DNA of 64,000 bases from Candidatus Poribacteria bacterium (GTDB lineage Bacteria; Poribacteria; WGA-4E; WGA-3G): positions 2,077,381-2,141,380 of the forward strand of contig OY764016.1 of the NCBI GenBank assembly GCA_963667805.1, given 5' to 3'. Each line of letters starts with the position of its first letter. Within the stretch, counting starts at the first letter, position 1. Below are positions 11,565 through 38,800 of this stretch, in pieces. Below the pieces are notes generated by a model, which was not told where the DNA came from, did not search any database, and saw only the letters and a list, made by a program, of their open reading frames with translations. A program made the position numbers and the translations under genes.

Positions 11565-11702
11565 ACTGTTGTCCTTTGTGAAATGACCATCGTAGGATTT
11601 ACTGCTTTTGGAGTAAACGTCCCACCTCAGCTTTGTGTGGTGAATCGGGGAAATGCTTCAGGAGCTGCGCAAATCCCTATCGTGTGATGAGAGATGAAAA
11701 TC

Positions 11703-13541: not shown

Positions 13542-15623
13542 CTACTCGAAGGCATTTGCGACCGCGACTAAATCAAGGACGTTTACTGTGCCATCCCCAT
13601 TAATGTCCGGGGTCTCTTCACCAAAAGCATTTGCCACGGCAACCAAATCGAGAATATTCACAACACCATCTTCGTTCACATCCGCTGTGGGAGGGGTTTC
13701 TAACCCCGATTTCAGATAAATCTCACCATCTAAATCTGGGAGCGTATGCCAGCGTTTGTTTTTAACACCGCTTGCCCAGCCGCTGCCCGCCTCCGGCAAT
13801 TGGATATTCTGTTCCTTGCCACTCCGGTTATAGACCGCCCAACCATTGGTGAATTCACGGATAAATAACCCCGCTTGATTTTCATACAGTTGTGCCTTTT
13901 CACCGATGGGATAACCGAGATCAGCATCCCAAAAATCATACCAGATGTGAGCGTGATGCGGAAAATCTGTTCGTCCCGTTTTAAAGAGGATATAGCCATC
14001 GGAATGCGTCAGGCACATCGTCGTAAATACTCGCATCCAGCGTTTGTTCGTCTGGCTATCTGGGGGTTCGGTACCGATCGCTTCACCTTCAACACAGTTA
14101 ATCTGAGGTGACCGTAGATTGGCTTCCGACCAAGACAGTGTATCTTCTATCTCCTGAAGCCCTTTATAGGTATAACCTCCTGGATAATCCTTATTGAGTT
14201 CCATAAACGTGCCATTCACATATGCTTTGTGTCTTGGTAGTTTCGTGCGGTTAGCATTGACAAGGATCAGAAAATCTTCACGCACGCGTTCTCGCGCACC
14301 TTCTAAGACCTTGGCGTGCGCTTCAATGAGCTCTGGTGCGGATGCCGTCTCGTTGTAATCGTATCCCGCGCCTTGGTTAAAGAACCCGTCAACAAAAATG
14401 CCGTCATACAGTCCACATTCAGCGATGCCAACAATCCGATTGACGAGCAATTCCTGCACTTCGGGTAGAAGGATGTTGAAATTGTATTCAGGCCAGTCTA
14501 CAGTATTCCACTGCACGCTTCCATCAGCTTCCCGAACCCAAAAGTCGGAATCCGGTGGGAACGCATCAAAATCAGGATGGTTATGGAATTGGATTCCCCT
14601 TAAAGACACCAGATTCGGATTCAAAGCGAGTCGTTGTTGACGGATACGTTGTGAGTGCTCCAAGTCTCCAATCAACCAAGTTGAGAGTCCATGCCAGGGT
14701 TCTGGCCATCGTACCCGGAAAGTTGGACTGAAATGTAGGTCGTGCTTGGAAATTCGTTCTGTGTGAAGAGGTTCGTCGAAAATATAGCCGGATGTATTAT
14801 ATTCCTCCGTGGATCCAATGAGCGGATCAAATCCCTGAACAACGGATGGAAAAGTTCTATTTTTAATGCGTTCAATGAGAGGTGGAGGCAGTGGTAGAAT
14901 TTCACAAATTTCATCGTATTGAAAGTCTGTGAGATTCTTTAGTTTTAAAAGTGGTGTGAAATCTCTAATCTGATTGCGTCTAAGGTCCAATACCCGAAGA
15001 TTTTCAAGATGCACAAGCGGAGACACATCCGTAACTTTACACCGCGCAAGTTCCAGCGATTCTAAATTCGTGAGACTTGACAGGGGTCTTAAATCACTGA
15101 GCGGATTATCTCTCAAGTTTATATCCCTCAGGTCTGACAGCACCGCCAATGGTGATATATCGGAGATTTGGTTGTGTTGTAAATCCAATTTCCTCAGAAA
15201 TGTCAGTGCGGAGAGTGGTGATAAATCAGAGATATGGTTGCTCCCCAAATCCAGACCCACAAGGGATGTTAGAGAAGCCAATGGTGATAAATCTGGATCT
15301 GAGAGGTTGGTAGTACCTAAACCCAAGTGTGTCAATTGCATCAACCCCTCCAGTGGACCGATGTTCTTTATGGGGTTATCGGCTAAATCGAGCTCCGTCA
15401 GACGGACGGCAAATTCTAAGCCTTGGATATTTACAATGCCCTTGTCTATCGCATGCAATCTCGTCAATAGGGTCATGTGCTTCTGGGTAAACGGCGGGGG
15501 AATTCCAAGTTCTTCTTGTATTGCTCGCTGTAAGTTAGTATCAGGGATATGAACGACTTGCGCAAAGCCGATCGACACCGTCAGCAGAAATACTATAAGG
15601 CTACATAGAAATCGTCTTAACAT
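13542..15623 (-). CDS. Secreted LRR protein with putative glycoside-hydrolase-like TIM-barrel domain and C-terminal dockerin-like repeats
   Basis: Start moved to MLRRFLCSL. Signal peptide; IPDTNL cap; LxxLxLxxNxIxDxxPL repeats; GLYDGIFVDG, VNGTFME, LFIREFTNGWAVYNRSG domain; ADVNEDGVVNILDL and DINGDGTVNVLDL. Confidence 0.8.
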   Translation of the reverse strand: MLRRFLCSLIVFLLTVSIGFAQVVHIPDTNLQRAIQEELGIPPPFTQKHMTLLTRLHAIDKGIVNIQGLEFAVRLTELDLADNPIKNIGPLEGLMQLTHLGLGTTNLSDPDLSPLASLTSLVGLDLGSNHISDLSPLSALTFLRKLDLQHNQISDISPLAVLSDLRDINLRDNPLSDLRPLSSLTNLESLELARCKVTDVSPLVHLENLRVLDLRRNQIRDFTPLLKLKNLTDFQYDEICEILPLPPPLIERIKNRTFPSVVQGFDPLIGSTEEYNTSGYIFDEPLHTERISKHDLHFSPTFRVRWPEPWHGLSTWLIGDLEHSQRIRQQRLALNPNLVSLRGIQFHNHPDFDAFPPDSDFWVREADGSVQWNTVDWPEYNFNILLPEVQELLVNRIVGIAECGLYDGIFVDGFFNQGAGYDYNETASAPELIEAHAKVLEGARERVREDFLILVNANRTKLPRHKAYVNGTFMELNKDYPGGYTYKGLQEIEDTLSWSEANLRSPQINCVEGEAIGTEPPDSQTNKRWMRVFTTMCLTHSDGYILFKTGRTDFPHHAHIWYDFWDADLGYPIGEKAQLYENQAGLFIREFTNGWAVYNRSGKEQNIQLPEAGSGWASGVKNKRWHTLPDLDGEIYLKSGLETPPTADVNEDGVVNILDLVAVANAFGEETPDINGDGTVNVLDLVAVANAFE

Positions 15624-15895
15624 AACAGGACTGCTTGTCACGATTCTTTTTCTCCTATAGATTGTTAACGCTTCAATCTGTATGATGTTAGACGAAGTAG
15701 GTGTCAGTAAACTATTGCGGTAGACCCCATCCATTTGGATAGGTCACAAATAGATTCAATTATCTGACTCCGATTCCTCAAACCCTTCTGTCGTTTACAT
15801 TACCTAAAGTCCTATTCGACCTCGTTGTCAAAGGACCACAAAATCATGCCCTCTTCTCCAGAGTTCCCAGTCATGGGTATTGCGCCTTCCCACGT

Positions 15896-16372
15896 TCAAT
15901 CGAGTCCAGCCACATTTCCAAATCTATCTCTTGTGAAGACAACGCCGTCCCCTTCAACTATACTTAAGGCAGCACCGCCTTTCCCAGCCGCAGAAAAAAT
16001 GGTTACGCCTCCACCCTCTGTGCCAATTGTGAGACTCGCACCAGCATTCCCCTGCTTACCGGTAACGCCTACAATTCCACCCAACTTGCCAATCTGAAGA
16101 CCCGCACCGGCAGGAGCACGTATTCCTCCGAGACCGTAACACGATACCCTTCCACCATTTTCATCCGAAGATATAATAACTCGCGGCTCCCCATTGTCTG
16201 CGATCACGATTATGTCTTCAAGCACAGTTAACTTCCGGACCGCCAGTTCATCAATCGTTTCAGATCCAGATTGTGCTTCGGTATTCTCGTTCATGTTTCC
16301 TAATACAAATCCGGCTAAGGCTATTAACGCACCCAAAGCCATATATTTCAACTTTTCACGTAATCTAAGCAT
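15896..16372 (-). CDS. Hypothetical exported protein with Gly-rich beta-strand repeats
   Basis: AAGGAG RBS; N-terminal hydrophobic segment; repeated GGxVxI/GAxLxI units. Confidence 0.65.
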   Translation of the reverse strand: MLRLREKLKYMALGALIALAGFVLGNMNENTEAQSGSETIDELAVRKLTVLEDIIVIADNGEPRVIISSDENGGRVSCYGLGGIRAPAGAGLQIGKLGGIVGVTGKQGNAGASLTIGTEGGGVTIFSAAGKGGAALSIVEGDGVVFTRDRFGNVAGLD

Positions 16373-16417
16373 TATAGATTCTCCTTTTTATGAAATCGTG
16401 CGTAGGTTTAAAATTAG

Positions 16418-16496
16418 TTGATGTCCGAGATCCAAACGCCGGACGATGCTGCTCTGTGTATTGTAGATGGTAATCCACACATCACTGGGGTTCGCC
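16418..16496 (-). pseudogene. Out-of-frame remnant of the C-terminal sorting (PorSS/FlgD-like) domain
   Basis: DNA nearly identical to 23683-23760 and 31551-31628 (ANPSDV.ITIY...GSIVRRLDLGHQ), fused to the end of the WD40 gene. Confidence 0.85.
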
Positions 16497-18515
16497 GAGG
16501 GCTCCAGCCACCTGCACTAAATCTTGAATGTTGACGACCCCATCGCCATTGACATCCGCGGTGTTTTGTGCTGTCTTGCCGAGGTGTGCTGCGACGAACA
16601 CAAGGTCTTGGATGTTGACGACCCCATCGCCGTTGACATCCGCGGTGCGTCGCTGAGGTTTAGGTGGCGTCAGTTCCCACAGTAGCACCGTGCCATCCCC
16701 ACTGCCACTGGCGAGGATATTGCCATCAGGACTAAACGATATGCTCGCAACACCACCCCTCTGCCCTGTGAGGGTGCGTATGTGATTTCCTGTCTCTACA
16801 TCCCATAGATGCACTGTGCCGTCTTGACTGCCGCTGACGAGGGTACCGCCATCCGGACTAAACGATACACTCTCAACAGCAGCTATATGCCCTGTGAGGG
16901 TGCGTATGTGATCTCCTGTCTCTACATCCCATAAACGGGCGGTGCTGTCCTCACCCCCACTGGCGAGCGTCGTGCCATCGGGACTAAATGACACACTCTC
17001 GACAGCACTCGTGTGCCCTCCAAGTGTTCGAAGCTGCTTCCCTGTTTCTACATCCCATAGACGGGCAGTGCCGTCTCCACTCCCGCTGGCGAGCGTCGTG
17101 CCATCGGGACTAAATGATACGTCCAGGACACTATCTGCATGCCCTATGAGGGTGCGTATGTGATTTCCTGTCTCTACATTCCATAAACGGATAGTGCCGT
17201 CTCCACTCCCGCTGGCGAGGGTAATGCCATCGGGGCTAAATGATACGCTATAGACGTGCCACCTATGCCCCTCAAGTACCTGGAGCTGCCTACCTGTTGC
17301 TACATCCCAGAGATGGACAGTAGCATTCGGATCTCCACCTGCGAGCGTCGTGCCATCGGGACTAAACGACACGCTATAGATGTACCATCCATGCCCTTCA
17401 AACGTCCGGAACTGCTTCCCTGTTGCTACATCCCATAGACGGATGGCATCCCCCAACTCTACGCTGGCGAGGGTGCTACCATCGGGACTAAACGACACGC
17501 TATTGATAGATGATGTATATCCTTCAAGCGCCTGGAATTGCCTTCCCGTCGCTACATCCCAGAGATGGATAGTGCCGTCATCACCGCCGCTGGCGAGGGT
17601 ACCGCCATCAGGACTAAATAACACACTATAAACCTCCGTCGTATGTCCTTCGAGTATCTGGAGCTGCTTCCCCGTTGCCACATCCCAGAGACGGACAGTA
17701 TTATCCTCACCTCCACTGGCGAGGGTGCTACCATCAGGACTCAACGACACGCTATAGACTTCACTCGTATGTCCTTCGAGTATCTGGAGCTGCTTCCCCG
17801 TTGCTATATCCCAGAGACGGACGGTGCCATCTCCGCTCCCACTGGCGAGCGTCGTGCCATCGGGACTAAACGATGCACTCGTAATCCAACCCGTATGTCC
17901 TTCAAATATTTGGATCTCCTGTCCTGTCTCTACATTCCATAGATGGATGGCATCCTCAAAATCTGCGCTGACGACCCTGCTACCATCAGGACTAAACGAC
18001 ACGCTCTGGGTATACCATATATGCTCTTCAAGTATCTGGAGCTGCTTCCCCGTCGCTACATCCCATAGACGGATATCCCAACTTCCACTGACGAGGGTCC
18101 TGCCATCGGAACTAAACGACATACTCCGAACCCAACTCGTATGTCCTTCAAGTGTTCGGAGCTGCTTCCCCGTCGCTACATCCCACAGGTAGACGGTCCC
18201 ATCCGCATCCCCGCTGGCGAAGGTCGTGCCATCGGGACTAAATGAGAGACTCACGGCCCAACTCGTATGCCCCGTGATCAAATCAAGTGCTTCATTGGTC
18301 GCGGTATCGTAGATCCAAATACCGATAGAACTCGCAACCGCCAAACGCGTTCCGTCCGGAGAATACGCAATCTCCGTTATAAATCCTTTACCGAGGCGAG
18401 CCTTGGCCGCTTCGGGTAAACTCCATTGTGTGTGGTCTTGTGCGAACGTGATTGCTGAAAAAATGAAGGAAGCACAAAATAGTGGACCAGCAATCAAAAA
18501 TAGTCTGTTTTTCAT
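16482..18515 (-). CDS. Secreted WD40-repeat protein (about 14 blades) with dockerin-like repeats; C-terminus truncated
   Basis: Start moved to MKNRLFL. Repeated GH..V.SVSFSPDG.TLASG..DGT..LWDV; two ADVNGDGVVNIQDL repeats. Confidence 0.9.
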   Translation of the reverse strand: MKNRLFLIAGPLFCASFIFSAITFAQDHTQWSLPEAAKARLGKGFITEIAYSPDGTRLAVASSIGIWIYDTATNEALDLITGHTSWAVSLSFSPDGTTFASGDADGTVYLWDVATGKQLRTLEGHTSWVRSMSFSSDGRTLVSGSWDIRLWDVATGKQLQILEEHIWYTQSVSFSPDGSRVVSADFEDAIHLWNVETGQEIQIFEGHTGWITSASFSPDGTTLASGSGDGTVRLWDIATGKQLQILEGHTSEVYSVSLSPDGSTLASGGEDNTVRLWDVATGKQLQILEGHTTEVYSVLFSPDGGTLASGGDDGTIHLWDVATGRQFQALEGYTSSINSVSFSPDGSTLASVELGDAIRLWDVATGKQFRTFEGHGWYIYSVSFSPDGTTLAGGDPNATVHLWDVATGRQLQVLEGHRWHVYSVSFSPDGITLASGSGDGTIRLWNVETGNHIRTLIGHADSVLDVSFSPDGTTLASGSGDGTARLWDVETGKQLRTLGGHTSAVESVSFSPDGTTLASGGEDSTARLWDVETGDHIRTLTGHIAAVESVSFSPDGGTLVSGSQDGTVHLWDVETGNHIRTLTGQRGGVASISFSPDGNILASGSGDGTVLLWELTPPKPQRRTADVNGDGVVNIQDLVFVAAHLGKTAQNTADVNGDGVVNIQDLVQVAGALGEPQ

Positions 18516-18623
18516 GAAAATTTTCCTTTTCTGTTGTCTCAAGCCAACAGATATAAAAATGCATCTGGACTTCAGTCAACGGAAACCAAGAAGCAGCCCG
18601 ATTTATTTTGGGAGTCTATTTTT

Positions 18624-19364
18624 TTATCGCCAAGCATACCAAGCCTTATCAAAGTAGCCCACATCTGGAAACGCATACGGAGATGGTTCAAAATTCTCCT
18701 GTTCGCTCTTGTCTCGGCACCGACAGCGAACTCTATGTCCTCCATCGAGTTGTTTCCAATACGTCGCCTGCCACGGCGTAACATAATCCCATTCAACTGA
18801 CTCTAAAATCACCTCCATTTGTTCATAGAAACACATAGATTCCATGTAGGCTTCAAGCCAATTTTTATCTCCACAAGCCAGTTCCCACCTTTCATATTCA
18901 CCTTCCTCATCTTCTCGCTGAACACTTCTGGCTATGTATTTTTGCCAGTCAGGTGCGGCGAAGGCTTCCCATTGCGCGCCGCCTTCCTGCGTCAGTCCAT
19001 AGGACGTAATTTTTCTTACATCTACAGGTTCCGTGCGCGGGGGTTTGGATTCATCCGGGACAGTTTCGATGTCTCCGTCAGGTGAAATAAAGACGTGGTG
19101 GGTGTCCCAAGGTACCCGTTGCTCCAAAGCGAGTTCGATTTGTTCCTTCATTGAGATAGACCCTCCCATCTCGCTGTTGGCATAAATTAGCCCCGAAGAG
19201 AGCAATTGATAGAAGGTTTCAACCAGTGATGTGCGTGTTAACCCATGCCCTTTTTTATTTAGGTGTAACTCAAGATCATCATCAGTGAGACCACAGATCT
19301 CCCATTCGTGCTCGACGACCGTCTCAAGTAGCCAATACTCACCGCGTGTAAATCGTGGCTCCAT
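18624..19364 (-). CDS. Hypothetical protein, MEPRFTRGEYW family
   Basis: 246 aa; paralogue of 10896-11564; AAGGA RBS directly after the stop of 19385-23455. Confidence 0.7.
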   Translation of the reverse strand: MEPRFTRGEYWLLETVVEHEWEICGLTDDDLELHLNKKGHGLTRTSLVETFYQLLSSGLIYANSEMGGSISMKEQIELALEQRVPWDTHHVFISPDGDIETVPDESKPPRTEPVDVRKITSYGLTQEGGAQWEAFAAPDWQKYIARSVQREDEEGEYERWELACGDKNWLEAYMESMCFYEQMEVILESVEWDYVTPWQATYWKQLDGGHRVRCRCRDKSEQENFEPSPYAFPDVGYFDKAWYAWR

Positions 19365-19384
19365 GTTGTAGTTCCTTTCTTAAT

Positions 19385-22300
19385 CTACTTCCGAATTAGC
19401 ATTTTTCGTGTTGCTGTGAAATCACCCGCTGTGAGCGTGTAGAAATAGATGCCACTCGCTACGGACTCACCCACGTCATTTCTGCCATCCCAATACGCCG
19501 CGCGACTTCGGCTCTGATAGATACCAGCAGGCGTTTGTCCCAACGCCAAGGTCCGAACCAATACCCCGTTTACAGAATAGATACGCAACGTGACCTCCGC
19601 AGGCTCCGATACCTGATACGGTATCCATGTCTCTGGATTGAACGGGTTCGGATAATTGGCAAGCAACATTGTCTTTTCTGGAATCAGCGATGCTAAGAGG
19701 CGTTGAAGGTTGGCAATGCCGTGTTGGAAGGCGATGGAACCATCATCTTCAACTTGTGCCTGCGCTATCCATGCCTGAACCATTGCAGGATCCAAACCCT
19801 CTACGTCAGCCATCGCAAGGATGGAAGGCGCAGCTGAGGCAGTTGATTCACCCATGTGTTGTGCCACAAGAATGAGGTCTAAAATGCTGACAACCCCATC
19901 ATTGTTCACATCAACGTTGGAGTTAGCGGATGCTTTTTCGCCAAAATGTCGTGCCACCAGAATCAGATCCAGAACGCTTACCTGTCCGTCTGCATTCACA
20001 TCCCATTTCGGTCCGGACGCTACAGTGATAGTAAAATCACGCACGCCAGCAGGAATGATTTCACCAGCACTGGAACCCAATTGAAAGTTTCGCAGTGTCA
20101 TCTGACTGTTTCCATCTGCTTTCGCGGAGAAGACCACTGACAATAGTGTTCCCGTGCCAGCGATGCCACTTTCCGAAATCAGTGCCGCACTTAAACCTGT
20201 GATTTTACCCGTAGCATTATCGATCGTGCCTCGCTGAAAGAAGGTCGTTCCCCCATCCTTCTTCAGAAAATCACCCTCGCTCACTTTAATCGCTTCAAGT
20301 ACATTAGGGTCGAACGTGAGATCAAACTGCCACCCAGATAAATCTGTGACCTTTTCAGCGTTGACGCGGACGGTAAAAGTATCCCCGACGCGGACACTTG
20401 TGGTATCCGTCGAAAACGCGAAGCCGGTACCAGGGGATATCACCGCATATTGCGTACCGGGTTCAAATCCAAAATAGCCACTAAATTCCCCACCAGAGTT
20501 ATAGATAGCAACCAATAATACATTTGTTCCTTGTTTCAACGTGACGGGCGCATAACTTTGATAATCACGAGCCCACACCCAGCTAAGGTTCTCGTGAACT
20601 AACTCCCCATTGAGCCAGACCTTATGGACAATATCGCTTCCAGCAAATATCTGTGTTTGTTGGTCACGCGGCGAATATAAGGTAAGAGAACCATAAACGA
20701 CATTGCTTAAATCCCTATCTCCCTCCATACCAATAGCATTTAGCATTACGCGGATATTATCTCCTTCCGCGGGTGCAATTTCGTGTGATGTCCACACATT
20801 TTCTCCGACAGGACTTCCTTCTGTCGCCCCGCTTGTTGCAATGTCCAGTTCTGTCACAGCACCGTCACTCGCTTGTGAGAGCAAATCCACGTCATCCCAA
20901 AAACCGTCTCCCAGCACCAACATCCATAACCAGGGTCCCTCTATTTTCGGACCGCCCTGTGGAAAACCTGGATTGCTGAACCAATGAATTTCTGTATTCT
21001 CGCGTAACCCATCCAAGGGCGAGAGATCTGAGATGTTGTTCTGCTGAAGTTGCAACTGTTCTAAGTTGTGTAAATTTGCGAGGGGCGATACGTCCGATAT
21101 TTTGTTCCGCGCCAGATTTAACTCTTTAAGATTTTTCAAAGATGCCAAAGATGAGATCTCCGATATCATATGGTTGCTCTGTATTGCGAGCCATTCTAAA
21201 TTAATCAATCCTCCCAGTGGTGAAACATCCGACACACCACTGGAATTAACACCTAATCTCACCAAACTTTTTAATCCTTTTAAAGGCGAGAGATCAAGAT
21301 CTTTGGAGGCGTAAGTTTCCAGTCTTTTCAAATTCATTAGTCCTGCCAAGGGCGATAAATCAGATACCGGGCTGTTCTTAAATTCTAACCATTTGAGTTT
21401 CGTTAATCCTGATAGTGGGGAGAGGTCTGAGATGGATGTCTTCCAAAACCCTACACCCTCTAAGTTAACCAAATCTGCCAAGGGAGATAGATCCGACAGA
21501 GATTCACCAGAAAGCCTTATTTCTTTTAGTGTTGTTAACCCGGATAGAGCGGATAAATCAGAGAGCGGATTCCCGCGAAGATTAAGTTCTATCAGATTTA
21601 CTGCAAACTGAAGCCCCTCCAAATCCTGAATATCCATTCCATCTATATCAAGGTGCATCAACGTTGCCATTTCCTCTGCCGTAATTGCAGTGCCAGATGC
21701 TTTGCCAAGAGTCTCTGCGATTGCAGCGCGAAGGTTTGCGTCAGGGATGTGAACTAACTCCCCAGGGATGCGTTCCCTCTGAGGCGTAACAGGCTTAGGG
21801 ATACTACTATCAGGAGAACTCAGCGTGGCAACTATATCATCGAAATTCGATGTCCATGTATCCCTTTTCACACTCCCACTCACACCTGTCAGCACTCCCA
21901 AACCTAAGTTTTTCAGACTCGCATTCTCGCGAACCTTTTGGAGGAGATCCGTCATTTCTAACCCTACTGCGGCAGCTGCGTGTGCCGCAGCAAGCGGTCT
22001 TTGAAACGCCTCGTGGAACCGTTGAACGGGTTCAATCCCACCGAAGACATCTCCTGTTTTTTCAAGTGCTTGCCGGTAACGAGCGGTATCCTCTTCTAAG
22101 AACGCGTCCATCTCCACCTTCTCTGCATAGAGTCGCAACGCGCGATCCTTGTTAAAGGGGGGATTCGCATTCTGTTCGACAACCCCACGCACCTCATCTT
22201 CAAACACCTTCATCCCTTCTGTATGACATCCGATGCAGGAGAGACCATTACGGACGGTTGGATCGCTCGCCGCTGGGTTTCGGACAATCTTTATCGGTGC

Positions 22301-23455: not shown

Positions 23456-23534
23456 GTGTCCTCTCCTTTACATCATGTTGCCCAATACGAAATCCACCCT
23501 TGCACTTTGGTGAGCGTGTAAACGCCTCTGAACT

Positions 23535-27688: not shown

Positions 27689-27801
27689 AATTAATTCCTT
27701 TAATAATTAAGAATTTCCAGCGAATTGCAATTCAACGGCAGACCTTGGCCTGAATGCGATCAAAGTGGGCAATTCCAAGGGCACCTCTCGTGGAGTCCAC
27801 C

Positions 27802-30717
27802 CTATTCCAAGTGTGTAAGTTTCAATCCAGAGAGTGGTGTGAAATCTTTTATCGGGTTTCCTCTAATCCGCAATTGCCGAAGTTCCTTCAAACCCGCTAA
27901 TGGACGCAGGTCAGAAATGTCGTTATGTGACAGATGCAAGATTTCAAGTTTTTTCAACCGCGCCAATGGGCTTATATCCGAAACCTTGCTATTCTCCAGC
28001 GTGAGGTCCTCTAAATTGATGAGATTCGCTAACGGACGCAGATCAAGGGTGGGTGTGTTTGGAAAGATATCTGAGAGATATAAAGCTTTAAGCGTCGTTA
28101 AGTTGGTAAGTGGGCGGAGGTCTGTTATCGGATTGTCCCTAAGGTCGAGTTCCCTAAGATTCGTCGCAAACTCCAAACCCGTGAGGTCAAAAATCCCCTT
28201 ACCCGCAACATCGATGTCACCGACCGCTTGCATTCGCTCTTTTGTCAGCGGAACATCAGGCAACAGCCCGATTTCACCGCGAACAGCGGTCCGTAATGCT
28301 GGGTCGGGCATCCATGCCTCAGCCAGATCTGTTTGTCCTGTTGTCTGTCCGATAACATCGTATTTCAGGTTTGTCAGGTTCAATCCAGAGAGTGGTGTGA
28401 AATCCTTTACCGGATTCCCTTTGAGCAACAATGTCCGTAGTTCCGTCAGCCCTGATAGGGGTCGGATGTCGGAAATGCCACTATTTAAAAGATCCAAGGT
28501 TTGAAGTTCTTTCAACGCCGCTAACGGACTTATATCCGAAACCTTTATCGGATTGTTAGAAATGTTGAGGTCTGTAAGATTCAATCCAGAGAGTGGCGTC
28601 AAATCTCTTATTGGATTTCTCTCAAGCCACAATTGCCGCAGTTCCGTCAGCCCCGCAAGTGGATGCACATCCTCAATTTGATTATTCGAGAGATGCAAGC
28701 GGCGAAGTTTCTTTAACCCCATCAGCGGACGGATATCCGAAATCCAGTTTCCCTCCAAGGACAGCATCTCTAAGTTAATGAGAGTCGCCAACGGACGCAG
28801 ATCCAGATCTGTCGGACGGACAGGGACGTGCCAGAGATGTAGCCCCACGAGTTGTGTCAAATTCGACAGTGGACGTAAGTCTGTTATCGGATTCTGGCCC
28901 AAGTATAATTCCCTAAGATTCGTTGCGAACTCCAATCCTGTGATGTCCAAGATGCCTTTGTCACGCGCATAGAGGTAGTCCAAACCCAGCATCTTTTCTT
29001 TTCTCAAGGGGATGTCGGGTAGCAGTCCGATTTCACCGCGAATCACCGCACGCAACGCGGGGTCGGGCATCCACGCCTCGGAAGGCCGTGTTTGCGCTGC
29101 TGGGTCCGATACAGCATCGTATTTCAACTCTGTGAGATTCAATGCCGACAGCGGTCTGAAATCTTTTGCTGGGTTCCCTTTGAGCAACAATATCCGCAGT
29201 TCTGTCAGTCCTGTCAGCGGACTTAAGTCTCCAACGCTATTGTCTGTAAGGATGAGTTCCGTTAGGTTTTCCAAACCTGTAAGCGGAACAATATTTTCAA
29301 CTCTGTTGTCAAAAAGGTCTAATACCTCTAAACTTTTCAGATTCGCAAGCGGACTTAGATCGCTGACACGATTGTCAGCCAAATTTAGGTAGGTCAGGGA
29401 AGTCAACGACCGCAGTGGCGATACATCGGTCACTTGATTATTCCAGAGACTTAACCCGATTAGGTTCGTTAGGGTGGTGAGAGGTCTCAGATCTGTTACT
29501 TGGTTAGCGCCCATATTGAGATGCCTCAAAGTGGTGAGCGTCGTGAGAGGACTTAAGTCGATAACATAATTACCCGCGTCTCCTAAATGTAAATGCACTA
29601 AATTTTGAGCGAATTCTAAACCCGTTATATCGGCAATACCTCTTCCCTCGGCGATTAGACGCTCCAATCCTTGTATATCCTCCTTCGTCAACGGCACCGT
29701 TTCAGGCAGTCCGAGTTCCTCTCGAATCGCCGTACGCAATGCGGGGTCGGGCATCCAGTGGGTCTGCGTATCTTCTGGATGCACAGGCGCAATGGACGTT
29801 GAAACGCTTTTGGAAACCTGTAATCCGTTACCGATGGTATTCTCAACGGGCACGACGGCACGTCCACTTTGATTGCGGAGTGCCGGTTTCGCGTCGGTCT
29901 CTAAGACAATAGACACGTCCACGATTTCAATGGTCGGTTCAGATTTTGCCTCGAAACTATAGGGTCTCTGAAAACGGGTGAGATGTTGGTTGCTGAGTCC
30001 GATCAAAAATAGAATCAGGACCGCAGCGGCACCAAACGCCGCCCATGGGAGCAACGGTTTCGTAGCCGAGGGAGGGGTCAGTTTCAAGTCAGCGACTTGC
30101 TGCATGACGTTCTGGGTTAAATTCGCTGATATCTGCACACCGCCGAGCACTTCTTGAACCAAGGCATCTTCTTTCTCCCGTAACCGTTTTCGTGCCCGAC
30201 TGAGTCGACTACTGATCGTCTTTACGGAAACGCCCAAGAACTTACTAATCTCCTTCATTGTCATTTCGCCGAGATAGAAAAGCGTCATGACGGTGCGTTC
30301 ACTCTCCGGCAGTTTTTCCAGAAGTTTTTTGACGACTTCACGCCGGCGTTCCTCGGCTTCTGCTTCGCGGTGCTCCGATAGATAGTGAGTATAGGAGAGC
30401 TTTTCTACTTCATCCACGCGTGTGTCCTCCAGCGATTGCGTCGCAAATTTTTGTTTTCGCAGCCAATTCAGGCAACGTCGATTCGCGATGACATAGAGCC
30501 ATCCGGCAAATTGATGGAAATCTTTGAGCGTCGGGAGTTTTTTATAGACTTGGAGGAAGGTGTCTTGCGTAATCTCTTCAGCATAATGAAAATCGCCGAT
30601 CTTGCGCCATACAAGCGCATGAACGCTTTTTTGGTACTTTTCGACCAAGATGCTGAACGCTACATCATCCCCTGATAAAATTCTCTGTATCAATTGAACA
30701 TCGTCTTCTCTTGCCAT
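27802..30717 (-). CDS. ECF-type sigma factor fused to a TM helix and three extracytoplasmic LRR modules
   Basis: Region 2 (AEEITQDTFLQVYKKL, FAGWLYVIANR) and region 4 (LPESERTVMTLFYLGEMTMKEISKFLGVSVKTISSRLSRARKRL); TM PWAAFGAAAVLILFLIGL; three WMPDPALR-capped LRR blocks. Confidence 0.88.
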   Translation of the reverse strand: MAREDDVQLIQRILSGDDVAFSILVEKYQKSVHALVWRKIGDFHYAEEITQDTFLQVYKKLPTLKDFHQFAGWLYVIANRRCLNWLRKQKFATQSLEDTRVDEVEKLSYTHYLSEHREAEAEERRREVVKKLLEKLPESERTVMTLFYLGEMTMKEISKFLGVSVKTISSRLSRARKRLREKEDALVQEVLGGVQISANLTQNVMQQVADLKLTPPSATKPLLPWAAFGAAAVLILFLIGLSNQHLTRFQRPYSFEAKSEPTIEIVDVSIVLETDAKPALRNQSGRAVVPVENTIGNGLQVSKSVSTSIAPVHPEDTQTHWMPDPALRTAIREELGLPETVPLTKEDIQGLERLIAEGRGIADITGLEFAQNLVHLHLGDAGNYVIDLSPLTTLTTLRHLNMGANQVTDLRPLTTLTNLIGLSLWNNQVTDVSPLRSLTSLTYLNLADNRVSDLSPLANLKSLEVLDLFDNRVENIVPLTGLENLTELILTDNSVGDLSPLTGLTELRILLLKGNPAKDFRPLSALNLTELKYDAVSDPAAQTRPSEAWMPDPALRAVIRGEIGLLPDIPLRKEKMLGLDYLYARDKGILDITGLEFATNLRELYLGQNPITDLRPLSNLTQLVGLHLWHVPVRPTDLDLRPLATLINLEMLSLEGNWISDIRPLMGLKKLRRLHLSNNQIEDVHPLAGLTELRQLWLERNPIRDLTPLSGLNLTDLNISNNPIKVSDISPLAALKELQTLDLLNSGISDIRPLSGLTELRTLLLKGNPVKDFTPLSGLNLTNLKYDVIGQTTGQTDLAEAWMPDPALRTAVRGEIGLLPDVPLTKERMQAVGDIDVAGKGIFDLTGLEFATNLRELDLRDNPITDLRPLTNLTTLKALYLSDIFPNTPTLDLRPLANLINLEDLTLENSKVSDISPLARLKKLEILHLSHNDISDLRPLAGLKELRQLRIRGNPIKDFTPLSGLKLTHLE

Positions 30718-30905
30718 CAGGATTCTCCATGATTCATGAACAGGTTTCGCAGCCTTGAACGTCCCTTCGCGCTGTTTTCATTTGGAAGGATCGCGTTGCC
30801 AGGATCTGTAAGCAGGTGTCGTCTATGTGCTGAATTTGCATACAATTGTAGCACGTAGAATTCAAAGACTGCACCATTTAATGTGGGCCCTCATCTTCCC
30901 TGTTG

Positions 30906-30939
30906 TTAAAGACACAATTTTTTGTCAAAAGTCTGCACC
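30906..30939 (-). promoter_or_regulatory. Conserved motif upstream of ECF gene 27802-30717 (putative ECF promoter or operator)
   Basis: Minus strand TGCAGAC-TTTTG-ACA-AAAAATTGTGTCTTTAA; the last 17 nt are identical to 38921-38937. Confidence 0.6.
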
Positions 30940-31106
30940 AATTTAACACAAGTCGCTATTTTTAAAGAATACGGAATAGCATTCATACCTCTCAAACGCG
31001 CCATTAAAGATAGAAAGGGCAGAAACCCTCTAATTTCCACCCTCCTTTTTTATAACCGCGTCAACGCGCTTCTACTTACAGTTTGTATCAAATGACCCCA
31101 TGATCG

Positions 31107-31129
31107 CTATAGACATATTGCTCCGCTGG
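31107..31129 (-). repeat. CAGCGG...TCTATAG small dispersed repeat
   Basis: ccagcggagcaatatgtctatag; related copies at 57502-57525 (+) and 52513-52536 (-). Confidence 0.55.
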
Positions 31130-31171
31130 AGCAAAGAGATTTCTTGATGCCTAAGGGCGTGGTGTGTTTTT

Positions 31172-31242
31172 CTAGGAGCGAGCTGGGCTCGCGAGTGTTT
31201 TCGGGCATAAGTCAGGGGTCGCGAGTAAAACTCGCTCCTACA
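31172..31242. repeat. Inverted doublet of GTAG-family REP sequences (REPIN-like)
   Basis: TAGGAGCGAGCTGGGCTCGCGA faces the reverse complement GTAGGAGCGAGTTTTACTCGCGA; each is a short palindrome preceded by (G)TAG. Confidence 0.7.
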
Positions 31243-31402
31243 AGGAGGTTTGGTTTTGACCAAATGTTTACACACCCTGTCGACTGAGGGACAGCTGACG
31301 CTCAATGAGGTTCAAAAAGCTGCCTCAATTTAACCCGCTCATCAGCGATGATTGGGAAGCTAATGAACATCAGCGTCCCAACTCTCCTATGGTCATCTGA
31401 TA

Positions 31403-34400
31403 TTATTTCAAAATCAGCATCTTCCGCGTAGCAGAGAAATCTCCGGCTGTGAGTGTATAGAAATAAACACCACTGGCAACGCGTTCACCGACAGTGTTTC
31501 TGCCGTCCCAATAGGCGGCGTGACTCTGACTCGTGTAGTAACCTTCACGTTGATGTCCGAGATCCAAATGCCGGATGACGGTACCGCGTGCGTCATAGAT
31601 GGTAATCCGCACATCACTGGGGTTCGCCAAATGATACGGTATCCATGTCTCTGGATTGAACGGATTCGGATAGTTAGGCAGTAGTGCCGTCTCTTTTGGC
31701 ACCAACGAGGCTAAGAGGCGTTGAAGGTTCGCAATGCCCGCTTGGAAGACAAGAGAGCCGTCATCCTCAACTTGTGCCTGCTCTATCCATGCCTGTATTA
31801 TCGCAGGATCCAATCCTTCTATACTGTCCACAGATAGCATCGAAGGGGCAGCTAAGCCGTTTGATCCACCCATATTCTGGGAAACAAGAATGAGATCCAA
31901 GATGTTCACAATTCCGTCGCCATTTAGGTCAACATCCGAGTTGGCGGGGACGGTTTTTCCAAGGTGGCGAGCCACAAGCACCATATCCAGAATGCTTACC
32001 TGACCATCTCGATTCACATCCCCGGTCGTCTGTTCTCCCTTTACAGTAATGACGACCTCATGCGGTCCTGCATCTATGGGCTTACCGGTGATAGCAGCGA
32101 GTTGAAAGTTATCGAGTCTCAATTGTGTTCGTCCAGCTGTTTTTGCTGTAAATGTCACCGACAACAGCGTGCCTGTGCCGCTAACCCCATCTTCACCGAG
32201 TCGCGCTGAACTCAGACCTTTAATCTTACCCGCTCTATTATCAATCGTCCCTCTCTGGAAGAAGGTCGCTCCACCCCCTGTTTTCAGGAAATCGCCTTCG
32301 TTGACTTCAACGGCTTCAAGTATTTTTGGATCATAAGCGATATCAAATTGCCATCCCGCTAAATTGTAGATATCCTCTGCCCTAATTTCAAGCGTGAAGG
32401 TATCGCCAGCATCGATGATAGGTTGCGAAAAGGCGTATTCGACACGCGGGTTTAACACGGTATATTCTGCCTCAGGGTTAAACCCCCAAAAACCGTTCCC
32501 GCCCGTTCTTGTGGCAACTAATAAGACATTCACGCCCTCTTTGAGCGTAACAGGAACGAAATGTTGGTAATCTTCACCGCGTGCGCCTTTAAGTTTCTCA
32601 TGGACCAAAACACCGTTAAGCCACGCTTTACCACCACCGTCATTCCCAGCAAACAGCGTTACCTCTTGTTGTCGCGGTGAATACAGGACGACACATCCAT
32701 AGATAACGCCGGGCACAAAAGGTCCTGCTAACGCCTCCGCCGTTAACACCGTCTCAATGTTATTCCGCCCTGTAGGTGATATTGTGCCGGAATACCAGAC
32801 GCTATTTCCAACAGGGTTGCCTTCAGTCGCGCCATGGGTTGAAACCTTTACTTCTGTCACCGCGCCACCACTCGCTTCTGCGAGAACATCTAAATTTGCG
32901 AGAAGATCATCATTAGGATTCTCCAGCTTCCCCAGAACAGCACTTCTAATATCTGGCTCTGGCACCAGCACCCATAACCAAGGACCCTCTATTTTGGGAC
33001 CGCCTTCCGGGAAACCTGGATTGGTGTGATTAATGATCGTTACATCCTCGCTGAATCCATCTAAAGGCGAAAAGTCGGATATCTCATTTCCGCCAATATG
33101 CAACCATGTCAGGTTCTTTAACTTTGTAAGGGGCGATATATCCGATATGTTATTTTCTGAAAGTTCCAGCCACTTCAAGCCGGTTAACGTCGCTAAGGGC
33201 GATATATCCGATACGGGGTTGCCTGCAACACCTAAGCGCGTTAACCCTGTCAATTTCGCCAAGGGAGAGACATCCGATACCCCGCCTCCGAGAAGATAGA
33301 GTTCTTTCAAATTTTTTGCGCCTTCCAGGGTGGATACATCAGGCTCTCCACCACAAATATCTATGACCTCGAGTTCTACGAGTGGCGACAGGTCGGACAC
33401 AGGATTGCCCCAAGAATCAAACCGCTTCAAGTTCGGCAATCCCGCCAGAGGTGAGAGATCCGATATATTGTTATGACTCACCTTTACGTGCCTAAGATTT
33501 GTTAATCCCGCCAGAGGCGATAAGTCACTTATTTCATTGGCACTGATATCCAAAAGATCCAGTTTTGTTAATCCCGCCAGCGGAGATAGGTCAGATATTT
33601 GGTTGCTCTCAATTTTTAACCATTCCAAATTTGTTGCAAACTCAAGTCCCGTCAAATCGCGGATGCCCATTTCTTCAGGAGAAATCCGATGTAACCACGT
33701 CATATCTTCCACTGTGATTGGGGCATTTGGTGTTTTTCCAAGATTTTCTTCAATGAACGCACGCAAATTCGGGTCGGGGATGTGGACAGATGCCCCAGGG
33801 ATACGTTCCGTCTGCGGGTCGACCGAAATCGCTACATCCGGGAAATCCAAGGCAAACACGATTTCACTAAACTTCGATGTCCATGTATCTCTTTTCATTG
33901 TGCCATTTTCTAAGACTAATACCCCTAAACTTTTCAAATTCGCGGAGGCACGAATCTTTTGGAGGAACACCTCGGTTTGCAACCCAACGGCGGCAGCGGC
34001 ATACGCCGCATCCACCGGTCTCTGAAACGCCTCGTGGAATCGATGAACGGGTTCAATTCCTCCAAAGACATCGCCGGTCGCTTTCAGGGCTTGTTTGTAG
34101 CGTTCGGTATCCTCCGCCAAGAGTCCCGCCATCGTGGTTTTGTCCGTATAGAGTTGCAACGCCCGGTCTTTGTTAAAGGGTGGATTCGGGTTCTTCTGAA
34201 CAACGTCCCGGACCTGATCTTCAAAATCCTTCATCCCCTCGGTATGGCAACCGATACAGGAGAGTCCGTTGCGGACGGTCGGATCACTCGCAGCCGGGTT
34301 TGAGACGATGTCTATAGGTGCTGCGTCAAGCCGTCTACCGCCGGCATCAGCGAGATAGTATGCCTGTAAGCCGTTAGGAAGATTGAAAATGTTTTCGCCC

Positions 34401-35467
34401 CCGTCGTGTGTGAAAGACAAGGGATGTGTAAAGATGTTCTGGGCCCCTACACTCCCCGCAAAGTCGTAGCTTTTCCAATACGCACCATACCGAGAGATAT
34501 GGCGTTCCACGACGCGATTGTGATTCGATACACCCGAATCGCTGAATCCCGCACGCCAGACGCGTTTTCCCGCGGCGTTCCGAAGATTTTCAACAACATT
34601 CACCTCAAGCCGTTCCTCTAATTCCCGATCAGTTTCCGGAAGATTCAAAATGTCGTGGTAGAGGGGCGGTAAGGAAGCATTCGCAAGGAACCAATCCACA
34701 TGAATAAACGGCACTTCACAGTCCATTGCTTCCCGCAAACTCGTTAGTTTTTCACGTAGATTTGTCTGTGTCGGGGCATTGAACTCAACGCTATACGGAT
34801 ACACCTGTTCAATCTGTGTCCATCTATTGGTTCCGATCTCCCATTCGTAGTCCCGGAGGTCAATATAGAAAATCGTTTCTTCTGGGTCAATAGGCTGTGG
34901 TCTGATCACCTCGCGTCCCCAAGAGAGGCTATTCACGAGTTTCGAGAGTGCGCGTTGATAGGCATGCAATGCCTCAGCTGTCTCACCGGCGTTATAGAGA
35001 TGGGTGAGTGTGAAATAGCGTGCGAAGGTGCGGTCGAACGGAGAAAGCGAGTTGACGTGCTTTTCAATGGTATCCAGCATCCGCTTGGGCGTGATGAAGG
35101 TGCCATCTGTCGCAGAGGTGCCTTCCCAATTCGGCGCGCCGGCTTGGATCCAGTTGCCGATTGTCAGAATCGCCGCGGGTGGCAGTTGCGGTTGACCGAG
35201 TGGCATCCGTTTCGCTGGATCATTTGTGAGGAGTCGTTTATAGAGTTCAGATTCTATCGGTTTCCCTGGAACGACTGCTCCTGTTTGGAGGAGTGCTGTG
35301 TGATCAATGATGATTTCTTCAGTAAATGCGCCGTGTTCTCCATGGCAGTCGAGGCAACTTTGCTCAAAAATCGCATACGCCTGCTGCGCGAGGTTCTGTT
35401 GTGCATTAGCACTCTGATATCCCAAGATAAATGTGAATACAAGACTAATTTTGATGAAATTCTTCAT
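31403..35467 (-). CDS. Diheme cytochrome/LRR/PA14-like/cohesin/dockerin/CTD protein (paralogue C)
   Basis: Start moved to MKNFIKISL (AAGGGAG RBS); CLDCH and CIGCH; same domain order as paralogue A. Confidence 0.85.
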   Translation of the reverse strand: MKNFIKISLVFTFILGYQSANAQQNLAQQAYAIFEQSCLDCHGEHGAFTEEIIIDHTALLQTGAVVPGKPIESELYKRLLTNDPAKRMPLGQPQLPPAAILTIGNWIQAGAPNWEGTSATDGTFITPKRMLDTIEKHVNSLSPFDRTFARYFTLTHLYNAGETAEALHAYQRALSKLVNSLSWGREVIRPQPIDPEETIFYIDLRDYEWEIGTNRWTQIEQVYPYSVEFNAPTQTNLREKLTSLREAMDCEVPFIHVDWFLANASLPPLYHDILNLPETDRELEERLEVNVVENLRNAAGKRVWRAGFSDSGVSNHNRVVERHISRYGAYWKSYDFAGSVGAQNIFTHPLSFTHDGGENIFNLPNGLQAYYLADAGGRRLDAAPIDIVSNPAASDPTVRNGLSCIGCHTEGMKDFEDQVRDVVQKNPNPPFNKDRALQLYTDKTTMAGLLAEDTERYKQALKATGDVFGGIEPVHRFHEAFQRPVDAAYAAAAVGLQTEVFLQKIRASANLKSLGVLVLENGTMKRDTWTSKFSEIVFALDFPDVAISVDPQTERIPGASVHIPDPNLRAFIEENLGKTPNAPITVEDMTWLHRISPEEMGIRDLTGLEFATNLEWLKIESNQISDLSPLAGLTKLDLLDISANEISDLSPLAGLTNLRHVKVSHNNISDLSPLAGLPNLKRFDSWGNPVSDLSPLVELEVIDICGGEPDVSTLEGAKNLKELYLLGGGVSDVSPLAKLTGLTRLGVAGNPVSDISPLATLTGLKWLELSENNISDISPLTKLKNLTWLHIGGNEISDFSPLDGFSEDVTIINHTNPGFPEGGPKIEGPWLWVLVPEPDIRSAVLGKLENPNDDLLANLDVLAEASGGAVTEVKVSTHGATEGNPVGNSVWYSGTISPTGRNNIETVLTAEALAGPFVPGVIYGCVVLYSPRQQEVTLFAGNDGGGKAWLNGVLVHEKLKGARGEDYQHFVPVTLKEGVNVLLVATRTGGNGFWGFNPEAEYTVLNPRVEYAFSQPIIDAGDTFTLEIRAEDIYNLAGWQFDIAYDPKILEAVEVNEGDFLKTGGGATFFQRGTIDNRAGKIKGLSSARLGEDGVSGTGTLLSVTFTAKTAGRTQLRLDNFQLAAITGKPIDAGPHEVVITVKGEQTTGDVNRDGQVSILDMVLVARHLGKTVPANSDVDLNGDGIVNILDLILVSQNMGGSNGLAAPSMLSVDSIEGLDPAIIQAWIEQAQVEDDGSLVFQAGIANLQRLLASLVPKETALLPNYPNPFNPETWIPYHLANPSDVRITIYDARGTVIRHLDLGHQREGYYTSQSHAAYWDGRNTVGERVASGVYFYTLTAGDFSATRKMLILK

Positions 35468-35583
35468 GTATCTCTTTCTCCCTTCTTGAAAGAGTGAGCT
35501 GGACTCGAGATGCCCTTTGGCTGTCGTTGGACTGTCCAGTTTAAAATTCGGGTTGTTCGTAGCGGTGCAATTCACGCGCCCTG

Positions 35584-35607
35584 GTGGAAGCGATACATCG
35601 CTTCTAC
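35584..35607. repeat. REP-like palindrome
   Basis: GTGGAAGCGAT-AC-ATCGCTTCTAC. Confidence 0.55.
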
Positions 35608-35623
35608 GAACCCTACGGATGCC

Positions 35624-36025
35624 TTAATCCGTCAAGACCTTCCAGAGCCAGAGCACTGCTCCCAGCGATACGCCCCAGCCTATTGCTGACCTCTCTATCC
35701 GTTGGTTCTTGATGGAGCGTTTGTATTCATCAGTATAGGTGTGAACGTATGTAGAAGACTTGCCTAACAGTCGATGACTTGGAACTGTCGGGTTATTTAC
35801 GCTTGCATAGACGATAGCAAACATCCAGCACCCTGCCCCATAAGCGAACCAACGCAAGCCTGCGTCGTGCCATGCATCGCGTCTGGCATCTTCTTGCGCG
35901 TGTTGGATGAGTTGGGCGATCGGATCGTGTGGCTCTGTCATCGCTTCTACTGGGAGTATGTGCATAGGGACGCTGATCAGTATAAGGATTATCATTATTG
36001 TGATGCATCTGAAAATGAGGTTCAT
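35624..36025 (-). CDS. Short member of the PERLLGKS membrane-protein family (copy 6)
   Basis: Signal-like N-terminus; AQEDARRDA..WFAYG; PSHRLLGKSSTYVHTYT. Confidence 0.65.
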   Translation of the reverse strand: MNLIFRCITIMIILILISVPMHILPVEAMTEPHDPIAQLIQHAQEDARRDAWHDAGLRWFAYGAGCWMFAIVYASVNNPTVPSHRLLGKSSTYVHTYTDEYKRSIKNQRIERSAIGWGVSLGAVLWLWKVLTD

Positions 36026-36118
36026 AGGTTCTCCTTCATACCTAAGGCATTTGCGATATTGACGAGATCAAACAACATTGATAACATCAGCGCCGTTGAG
36101 ACCGGCAGATGTGGCTAT

Positions 36119-38800: not shown

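Follow-up and report, generated by a model that had tools for sequence, protein, structure and literature searches.

The stretch of DNA analysed here (the window, 64,000 nt; positions 2,077,381 to 2,141,380 of contig OY764016.1 of Candidatus Poribacteria bacterium, assembly GCA_963667805.1) carries at 13542-38800 a locus of eleven co-directional open reading frames (ORFs), all on the minus strand, in which three gene classes lie together: large proteins that join a two-haem module to leucine-rich repeats (LRRs), a cohesin and a dockerin; secreted proteins with a dockerin and no cohesin; and extracytoplasmic function (ECF) sigma factors that are tethered to the membrane and bear extracytoplasmic domains of their own. 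Coordinates refer to the window unless marked 'genome', the genome being a single contig of 5.51 Mb. A preliminary description had placed these genes on one strand and named their domains; all the genes lie on the minus strand at the positions it gave, and Pfam and NCBIfam scans of the locus proteins recovered the domain set. The features, in the order in which the minus strand is read, are as follows.

38917-38959, minus strand: ECF-type promoter motif, subtype A, 5' of sigma gene 2 (position weight matrix, PWM, 41.6 bits)
36119-38800, minus strand: ECF sigma factor 2, with sigma2 and sigma4 regions, tether, one transmembrane (TM) helix, conserved stalk, LRRs and a GHL15-like ectodomain ending in GEIYLK (Pfam)
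35624-36025, minus strand: small membrane protein of 133 aa between sigma gene 2 and paralogue C (ORF only)
31403-35575, minus strand: haem-LRR-cohesin-dockerin paralogue C, ORF of 1390 aa (Pfam PSCyt1, LRR, Cohesin, Dockerin_1, FlgD_ig)
30902-30944, minus strand: ECF-type promoter motif 5' of sigma gene 1 (PWM 35.3 bits)
27802-30717, minus strand: ECF sigma factor 1, with sigma2 and sigma4 regions, tether, TM helix, stalk and three LRR blocks (Pfam)
23535-27688, minus strand: haem-LRR-cohesin-dockerin paralogue B, split into the ORFs 25700-27688 and 23535-25694 (Pfam, sequence)
19385-23455, minus strand: haem-LRR-cohesin-dockerin paralogue A, 1356 aa (Pfam and NCBIfam, AlphaFold2, Foldseek)
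18624-19364, minus strand: protein of 246 aa, function not assigned, 20 nt 3' of paralogue A (ORF only)
16482-18515, minus strand: secreted WD40 protein with 12 repeats and a C-terminal dockerin, without a type IX secretion system (T9SS) tail (Pfam WD40, 488 bits)
15896-16372, minus strand: Gly-rich exported protein of 158 aa (ORF only)
13542-15623, minus strand: secreted LRR-GHL15-dockerin protein, without a T9SS tail (Pfam LRR_4, GHL15, Dockerin_1)

The three large paralogues follow a shared plan of a signal peptide, a 520-aa two-haem module, LRRs, a sugar-binding-like β-sandwich, a cohesin, a dockerin and a T9SS-type tail. In paralogue A these parts occupy 23381-23455 (signal peptide), 21776-23380 (two-haem module), 20981-21763 (LRRs), 20441-20980 (β-sandwich), 20018-20440 (cohesin), 19820-20008 (dockerin) and 19388-19660 (tail), and its CxxCH sites, of which each paralogue has two, lie at 23321-23335 and 22223-22237 (C41-H45 and C407-H411). 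Pfam matched PSCyt1 (27-30 bits, cut-off 22), LRR_4 and LRR_8, Dockerin_1 (PF00404) and FlgD_ig in both A and C, and NCBIfam placed the TIGR04183 T9SS type A sorting domain on the same two proteins (33.8 bits, cut-off 23). The true start of paralogue C is likely M37, at 35467 rather than 35575. The earlier count of three proteins of ~1,360 aa, each with two CxxCH sites, LRRs, cohesin, dockerin and tail, stands with the qualification that B consists of two ORFs of 662 aa (25700-27688) and 719 aa (23535-25694). The break in B is a one-base frameshift in the LRR region at about 25703 (span 25695-25703), where TTAACA has become TTACA by loss of one A, and B is therefore a pseudogene or an assembly error. 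For the 180-aa domain in the middle of the chain, between the LRRs and the cohesin, weak matches point consistently to jelly rolls of the GH2_N, rhamnosidase_N and PA14 types.

Two side observations concern these genes. The positional counterpart of paralogue B in another genome (G068; L038, 3384-3420) is also split, at a different run of A, and the two splits could be independent decay events or homopolymer errors of long-read sequencing. Elsewhere, at genome 873970-878786, a tandem row of four genes codes for proteins of ~285-310 aa that consist of the galactose-binding-like mid domain alone.

Examination of the N-terminal 520 aa reveals a discrete module, and 40 members sharing 37-64% identity keep both CxxCH sites and an M-P motif without exception. 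Its first ~55 residues, including the first CxxCH, match PSCyt1 above the cut-off and are the only part that Pfam covers; the remaining ~460 residues, with the second CxxCH, matched no Pfam or NCBIfam model and no PDB sequence by phmmer, and no curated model spans 80% of the length of the module. AlphaFold2 returned a confident fold (predicted local distance difference test, pLDDT, 93.4; predicted template-modelling score, pTM, 0.91), for which every Foldseek match against the PDB had E >= 0.8, the cytochrome subdomain being faintly like PsbV2. An exhaustive HMMER search gathered 4,928 clusters at 50% identity with E < 1e-3 (1,563 with E < 1e-30), in which the module occurs alone (~530 aa), after a Ser/Thr kinase and before an FGE-sulfatase domain, and with TPRs, prenyltransferase-like repeats or propellers; when genome contigs were searched with its profile, the best 80 matches all came from Poribacteria. 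The module thus defines a large family that still lacks annotation, and other bacteria also use it as the ectodomain of kinases. The CxxCH sites, a candidate axial ligand in the M-P motif and maturation genes, that is, the features by which a putative c-type cytochrome is recognised, are all found, and given that the genome holds Ccm genes (three over the cut-off for Cytochrom_C_asm, PF01578), two c-type haems are probably attached in the periplasm. We picture the head as a class-I cytochrome c subdomain, which would have His/Met ligation, joined to a large second-haem subdomain; the latter contains invariant polar columns (R, D, H, E and Y) in the 40-member alignment.

The preliminary description had read these proteins as subunits of a redox-active lattice. 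In that reading, cohesin-dockerin polymerisation would build an electron-conducting surface layer for extracellular electron transfer, and two invariant CxxCH sites per subunit, a c-type cytochrome maturation system in the genome and a single cohesin and dockerin per chain, which permits chains in principle, are all compatible with it. However, each subunit offers two haems in ~1,360 residues, with the CxxCH sites 366 residues apart and the head followed by ~800 aa of non-redox domains; the same module stands alone or occupies the sensor position of Ser/Thr kinases elsewhere; and Pfam scans found no periplasmic or outer-membrane electron-delivery chain encoded in the locus. Known electron conduits contain 6-10 or more haems in edge-to-edge packing, and a conduit of the MtrC/OmcS type, with at least 4 and usually 6-10 or more CxxCH motifs, was rejected for the same spacing and count. 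We therefore regard a conducting lattice as very improbable. The size of the family, a fold with no counterpart in the PDB and its use as a kinase ectodomain argue instead that the haem head is more likely a catalytic or a ligand- or redox-sensing unit than a wire.

A catalytic head could belong to a targeted enzyme, that is, an oxidoreductase or peroxidase in which an electron-transfer haem feeds a catalytic haem, which the LRRs and the β-sandwich aim at the host matrix and which docking co-localises with the GHL15 protein in an oxidative-plus-hydrolytic complex. The combination of a His/Met class-I subdomain with a large, conserved second-haem subdomain resembles the layout of di-haem enzymes, and a weak Pfam signal for CCP_MauG (E 8e-4), the confident fold prediction and the presence of GHL15 and pectate-lyase-like dockerin proteins nearby point the same way. 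Set against these are the lack of any structural neighbour in the PDB or sequence relative of known function, the absence of an evident electron donor at the cell surface, and the kinase-fused relatives, which suggest sensing over catalysis. On this balance an enzymatic head aimed at the matrix appears unlikely.

The cohesin and dockerin that had been assigned to these chains are genuine by sequence and by fold. Pfam Cohesin (PF00963) matched at E 2e-13 in A (19385-23455) and 6e-11 in C (31403-35575), with 43-56 bits across the three paralogues against a cut-off of 24.1; the cohesin part of the AlphaFold2 model has pLDDT ~90 or above, and Foldseek aligned it with 2jh2, 1qzn, 2xdh and 5nrm (E 5e-10 to 2e-8, TMt 0.66-0.78), so that the model has the nine-stranded β-sandwich of cohesins. 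The dockerin scores 36-45 bits (cut-off 22.9), matches 2y3n_B by phmmer at 2e-7, and contains two repeats of ~22 residues, DVNADGQVSVLD...DVNNDGVVSILD, in each of which a helix comes after a calcium loop of the form DxNxDGxxxxxD; the cohesin-dockerin segment as a whole matches cellulosomal cohesins and dockerins by sequence. The cassettes fall into two classes, one with A and B and the other, the 'Y..G' class, with C. In the genome, a six-frame search with profiles built from the window found ~20 cohesins in 18 ORFs and ~56 dockerins in 53 ORFs, including cohesin-only and double-cohesin proteins, with at most 2 cohesins per ORF. A ratio of ~20:56 is typical of a docking network, and in view of this census, binding of cohesin to dockerin in trans is plausible. 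A cellulosome was considered and rejected: no ORF has more than two cohesins, the genome has no carbohydrate-binding module (CBM), and the clients are LRR-GHL15 and WD40 proteins.

The two secreted dockerin proteins without a cohesin, which the preliminary description had recognised as LRR and WD40 proteins, are likewise borne out. The protein at 13542-15623 combines LRRs and a dockerin with GHL15 (PF14885, 46.8 bits, cut-off 27), and its gene is conserved in the syntenic loci L006 and L040; in the WD40 protein at 16482-18515 the dockerin was matched by a hidden Markov model built from the locus, and two DVNGDGVVNIQD repeats can be read off its sequence directly. The Asp of the DG-x-F-x-D motif is retained in all nine secreted GHL15 copies and is Gly or Asn in all four copies fused to sigma factors, and a second invariant acidic residue, a Glu, is kept in 9/9 of the former and lost in 2/4 of the latter. 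This Asp and Glu would be the catalytic residues, and the LRR-GHL15-dockerin protein of the locus, which keeps both, is a candidate active enzyme. In another Poribacteria genome the gene that follows a haem-LRR gene (L007, 14155-17346) codes for a dockerin protein of the pectate-lyase-fold/DUF4955 type that also has a T9SS tail, a case in which a candidate enzyme client brings an export signal of its own.

Docking in trans has to be weighed against a reading in which the large proteins are independent adhesins or host-interaction factors, whose cohesin and dockerin clasp each other in cis or chain identical copies and take up no clients, and whose clustering reflects paralogue expansion and a shared regulon. 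In its favour, the cohesin and dockerin are always adjacent, separated by a conserved linker of ~6 residues; the cohesin and dockerin distance matrices of one chain co-vary (Spearman 0.735) far above those of flanking domains, with 40 column pairs at z > 4 as against 0-4 in the flanking controls; the dockerins of the clients differ from those of the scaffolds at helix positions; the gene stands alone or in tandem, without dockerin-only neighbours, in most genera; and T9SS-tailed LRR and WD40 proteins have been described before as a hallmark of Poribacteria (PMC3909097). On the other side, dockerins outnumber cohesins almost 3:1 and many are on enzymes (GHL15, and the pectate-lyase-like protein of L007), which is hard to explain unless they bind in trans, cohesin-only and double-cohesin proteins exist, and the covariation is confounded by clade structure. 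Independent adhesins are thus a doubtful explanation, though far from a negligible one.

Both sigma factors indeed carry their own extracytoplasmic LRR domains, as had been claimed. They match TIGR02937 at 94-99 bits (cut-off 42.9) as well as Sigma70_r2 and Sigma70_r4; sigma 1 has LRR_4 at 245 bits over 11 stretches, and sigma 2 has LRR_4 together with GHL15 (43.8 bits, cut-off 27). About 40 aa after sigma4 each has one hydrophobic helix followed by an ectodomain of 650-770 aa, and the tether between sigma4 and the helix reads LGGVQIPA-LT-NIM-QVADMKPTPP, without Cys or His motifs. In the GHL15 domain of sigma 2 the invariant Asp has become Gly, and the sensor therefore looks like a disabled copy of the enzyme. 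The genome contains 54 ECF sigma ORFs, of which ~37 have long C-terminal extensions, and the same tether-TM-stalk cassette recurs in 23 of the 26 sigmas with more than 400 aa after sigma4, whatever the ectodomain. These long ectodomains are mostly BNR/sortilin propellers, with one WD40 and only four with LRRs; all four of the LRR-ectodomain sigmas adjoin haem or cohesin(-dockerin) genes, as do none of the ~33 other extended sigmas. An analogy with the SigI/RsgI pairs of Clostridium thermocellum had been drawn beforehand, and it is borne out at the level of logic, in that the sensor ectodomain, here a catalytically degraded GHL15, duplicates a module found in the proteins under control.

Upstream of both sigma genes lies an ECF-like promoter motif of the form TGTAAC or ATGCAC, N16, GTGTCTTTAA (subtype A being TGTAAC-N16-GTGTCTTTAA). 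The two upstream sites share the 17-mer AAAAATTGTGTCTTTAA, the second copy lying at 38921-38937, and this 17-mer occurs 26 times in the genome with two or fewer mismatches, as against ~1 expected. The PWM of the motif gave 49 genome matches, each pointing at a gene, as against none in 2 Mb of shuffled sequence; within the window the only two are those at 30902-30944 and 38917-38959. Matches lie 5' of all four sigma-LRR(-GHL15) genes, of at least 10 further operons with a tethered sigma and of two haem-LRR operons without a sigma gene (genome 293140 and 3089566), a 37-nt form being found with no more than one mismatch 5' of these haem-LRR operons at genome 293147 and 3089573; they also precede many exported PD40, Kelch, WD40 and LamG proteins. 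The gaps behind each sigma gene measure only 20-113 nt, which suggests that the haem-LRR genes are co-transcribed with the sigma gene upstream. The proposal that sigma factors control the haem-LRR genes is supported by this ECF-type motif, which tethered sigma genes and haem-LRR operons have in common. Scans of the intergenic regions for sigma-70 promoters and terminators stayed at chance level, and the Rfam scan found a tRNA at 42004-42077 alone.

Two further features accompany the motif. The 686-nt gap between paralogue C and sigma gene 1 (30718-31402) contains, besides the promoter motif, a long imperfect hairpin at 31014-31045, with no ORF of more than 77 aa and no Rfam match in the gap. 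The exported PD40/TolB-like, Kelch and LamG proteins behind the motif end in a shared PQ(P/x)xLLTTxWGxxK (for example genome 2681261-2682235, 2747358-2748494, 3436587-3437606, 4280941-4282005 and 5227552-5228436), which may serve as a sorting or anchoring signal of a kind not yet described and different from the T9SS tail.

The gene arrangement exceeds chance, because the same architecture and neighbourhood recur within the genome and in other genomes. The six-frame census found 13 haem modules and 9 GHL15 ORFs in the genome; the full design with haem module, LRRs, cohesin, dockerin and tail is seen in seven genes in three loci, at genome 295602-305971, in the window and at genome 3089690-3098113. 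All three gene classes are repeated at genome 3083760-3100214, and the locus at genome 1409664-1426273 has sigma-LRR-GHL15, LRR-GHL15-dockerin-tail and cohesin genes without a haem-LRR gene. Across the phylum the haem module (>= 60% identity) occurs in 70 of the 81 sampled genomes, all of one order, in 1-14 copies each, and more than 30 genes from 9 genera, seen in 22 contexts of 20-24 kb, all keep the order N-terminal haem module, LRRs, mid domain, cohesin, dockerin, tail. A tethered sigma gene adjoins the haem-LRR gene only in the genus of the window, in L006 (GCA_003635205, fully syntenic), L038 and L039; outside that genus the gene is solitary or forms tandem arrays of up to five. The expected co-occurrence and synteny of the three classes thus hold for three loci of this genome and three congeneric genomes and are absent outside the genus, and the linkage of the three classes is therefore a genus-level trait rather than a fixed system.

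With regard to export, the census found 78 T9SS-type tails in the genome, and the large proteins probably leave the cell in folded form by a T9SS-like route and stay at the surface through their type-A C-terminal domain. The best PorV-like outer-membrane barrel of the genome (genome 1415373-1416350, 100 bits) is encoded in the cohesin-dockerin locus, where its gene is the immediate upstream, divergent neighbour of the sigma-LRR-GHL15 gene at genome 1412265-1414994.

In light of the above, we propose that the locus represents one copy among several of a regulated surface-protein module specific to Poribacteria, a reading to which we assign a probability of about 0.5; the features are real and conserved, and the mechanism is half established. 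Each large chain would lead from its two-haem head through an internalin-like LRR array and a galactose-binding-like β-sandwich to the cohesin, the 6-residue linker and the dockerin. The proteins would be made with a Sec signal, loaded with haem in the periplasm, exported and displayed at the surface, where cohesin and dockerin could join the haem-LRR proteins mutually or to the dockerin-tagged LRR-GHL15 enzyme and WD40 protein, giving a non-cellulosomal surface assembly that might bind, and whose GHL15 enzyme might cut, a host or matrix ligand. Transcription would start from the family-specific ECF-type promoter before each sigma gene, with the haem-LRR genes co-transcribed behind it, and the sigmas would act as single-chain receptors whose ectodomains are diverged copies of the LRR and LRR-GHL15 modules of the locus, the latter catalytically disabled. 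Once ligand is bound, proteolysis may free the sigma domain, as happens in hybrids of the IutY type, a step that we infer from the precedents of IutY and ECF52 (PMC8999054), and release would result in positive autoregulation and induction of the surface proteins.

Several observations weigh against this proposal. Outside the genus, no sigma gene lies within 9 kb of a haem-LRR-cohesin-dockerin gene in 17 loci from 8 genera, and an obligate three-part system is accordingly not supported. The linker of ~6 residues, together with the AlphaFold2 models of the single-chain cohesin and dockerin (pTM 0.70; five discordant models, pLDDT 50 to 86), leaves room for packing in cis or for a dockerin that does not bind. 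The covariation between the two domains largely reflects the two deep classes, which the haem module also tracks, and its top pairs lie at the domain junction; as proof of a binding code it was accordingly rejected. Between sigma4 and the TM helix, Pfam and inspection of the sequence found no anti-sigma domain, either of the zinc-binding (ZAS, HxxxCxxC) or of the FecR-like type, and it is from sequence that the tethered sigmas are put forward as the readers of the motif. Neither dockerin-only protein has a T9SS tail, and with a Sec signal alone they would be retained in the periplasm unless they are exported together with a partner or by another route. Finally, the PorU-like (three ORFs, 254-292 bits, cut-off 420), PorV-like (three ORFs, best 100 bits, cut-off 250) and SprA-like (one ORF of 2276 aa with collinear matches, best 57 bits, cut-off 200) components of the genome are all under their curated cut-offs, and GldM/PorM had no match in the genome in a search that had no positive control.

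The proposed module can be extended to a phylum-specific 'display and sense' system made of a docked LRR-haem coat, dockerin enzymes and a family of tethered sigmas, which we consider possible, if tentative. Its coat would consist of LRR proteins joined by cohesin and dockerin and tipped by a previously unrecognised two-haem domain, a new fold family that numbers thousands and has a catalytic or a redox- or ligand-sensing role; into this coat dockerin-tagged enzymes would plug. Its regulators would form an anti-sigma-less family of tethered ECF sigmas with one promoter type and one cleavable cassette, each ectodomain having been copied from the induced proteins and disabled where the original is an enzyme. 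Poribacteria are abundant uncultured symbionts of sponges, and the locus bears on the question of how they engage the host matrix.

The surroundings of the locus and its small ORFs add some further observations. The ORFs of 133, 158 and 246 aa had no family match in Pfam or NCBIfam, and the gene for the 133-aa membrane protein has no equivalent at that place in the syntenic locus L006. On its upstream side the locus of the window is bordered by genes for a PIN-domain protein (39060-39518, E 1e-8) and a neighbouring ORF of 158 aa (39528-40004), and this pair looks like a toxin-antitoxin pair marking the boundary of the locus. Downstream, at 3935-13320, lies a cassette of DUF1493, LamG and TPR small proteins that is also found 3' of L006 (18723-23909, GCA_003635205); as this cassette is common to both loci, the neighbourhood is conserved beyond the haem-LRR locus.

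Among known systems, the cellulosomal scaffoldins (ScaA and ScaB of A. cellulolyticus, CipA of C. thermocellum) share with the locus the cohesin fold, the calcium-loop dockerin, the presence of both in one chain (as in adaptor scaffoldins) and the excess of dockerins over cohesins in the genome. In contrast to cellulosomal scaffoldins, the locus has no multi-cohesin scaffoldin (maximum 2), no CBM3 and no plant-cell-wall enzymes, its host is diderm and uses T9SS-type tails in place of S-layer homology domains or sortase, and its cargo consists of LRR, WD40 and GHL15 modules together with a two-haem head. The non-cellulosomal cohesins of C. perfringens (2jh2) and A. fulgidus (2xdh) are alike in fold. 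Other non-cellulosomal cohesin-dockerin sets have been described, for example in anaerobic methanotrophic (ANME) archaea (PMC9012536). If our proposal is correct, it would extend cohesin-dockerin assembly beyond biomass degradation to a diderm symbiont with T9SS-type anchoring. LRR and WD40 proteins of Poribacteria with signal peptides and TIGR04183 tails were reported by Kamke et al. 2014, who do not mention cohesin, dockerin, cytochrome or sigma factors (PMC3909097); the present locus goes beyond their account in its two-haem head, its docking modules and its regulatory circuit. Our literature search found no paper linking Poribacteria with dockerin or cohesin in a relevant way and no description of a haem-bearing cohesin-dockerin protein. 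The PSCyt1 'Planctomycete cytochrome C' proteins (PF07635) resemble the first ~55 residues of the haem module, and their PSCyt2 and PSD1 partners are absent here.

On the regulatory side, the locus shares with SigI/RsgI of Clostridium thermocellum the principle that a sensor derived from a regulated extracellular module controls an alternative sigma factor driving those genes and its own. Unlike in SigI/RsgI, sigma and sensor form one polypeptide, the sigma is of the ECF type (group 4) and not SigI-type, there is no RsgI-like anti-sigma, and the sensor is an LRR domain or a dead GHL15 rather than a CBM or GH10. Proteolytically activated sigma/anti-sigma hybrids are known in IutY of Pseudomonas putida (ECF243) and in ECF52 SCO4117, and the actinobacterial ECF48, ECF52 and ECF53 hybrids include SCO4117 with its carbohydrate-binding ectodomain (PMC8999054). 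These hybrids and the sigmas of the locus share a single chain with an ECF sigma, TM helix(es) and an extracytoplasmic domain, for which regulated proteolysis is expected; the latter differ in lacking a zinc-finger or FecR-like anti-sigma, with the ~40-aa tether alone before the TM helix, and in having a fixed cassette that recurs in ~23 paralogues with swappable ectodomains of 500-850 aa (BNR/sortilin, WD40, LRR, LRR-GHL15). With its fixed cassette, its swappable or dead-enzyme sensors and its shared promoter, this tethered sigma family would offer a design for single-chain transmembrane control of transcription. The locus thus combines two known kinds of system, a non-cellulosomal cohesin-dockerin system and hybrid ECF sigmas, and adds to them a large uncharacterised haem module.

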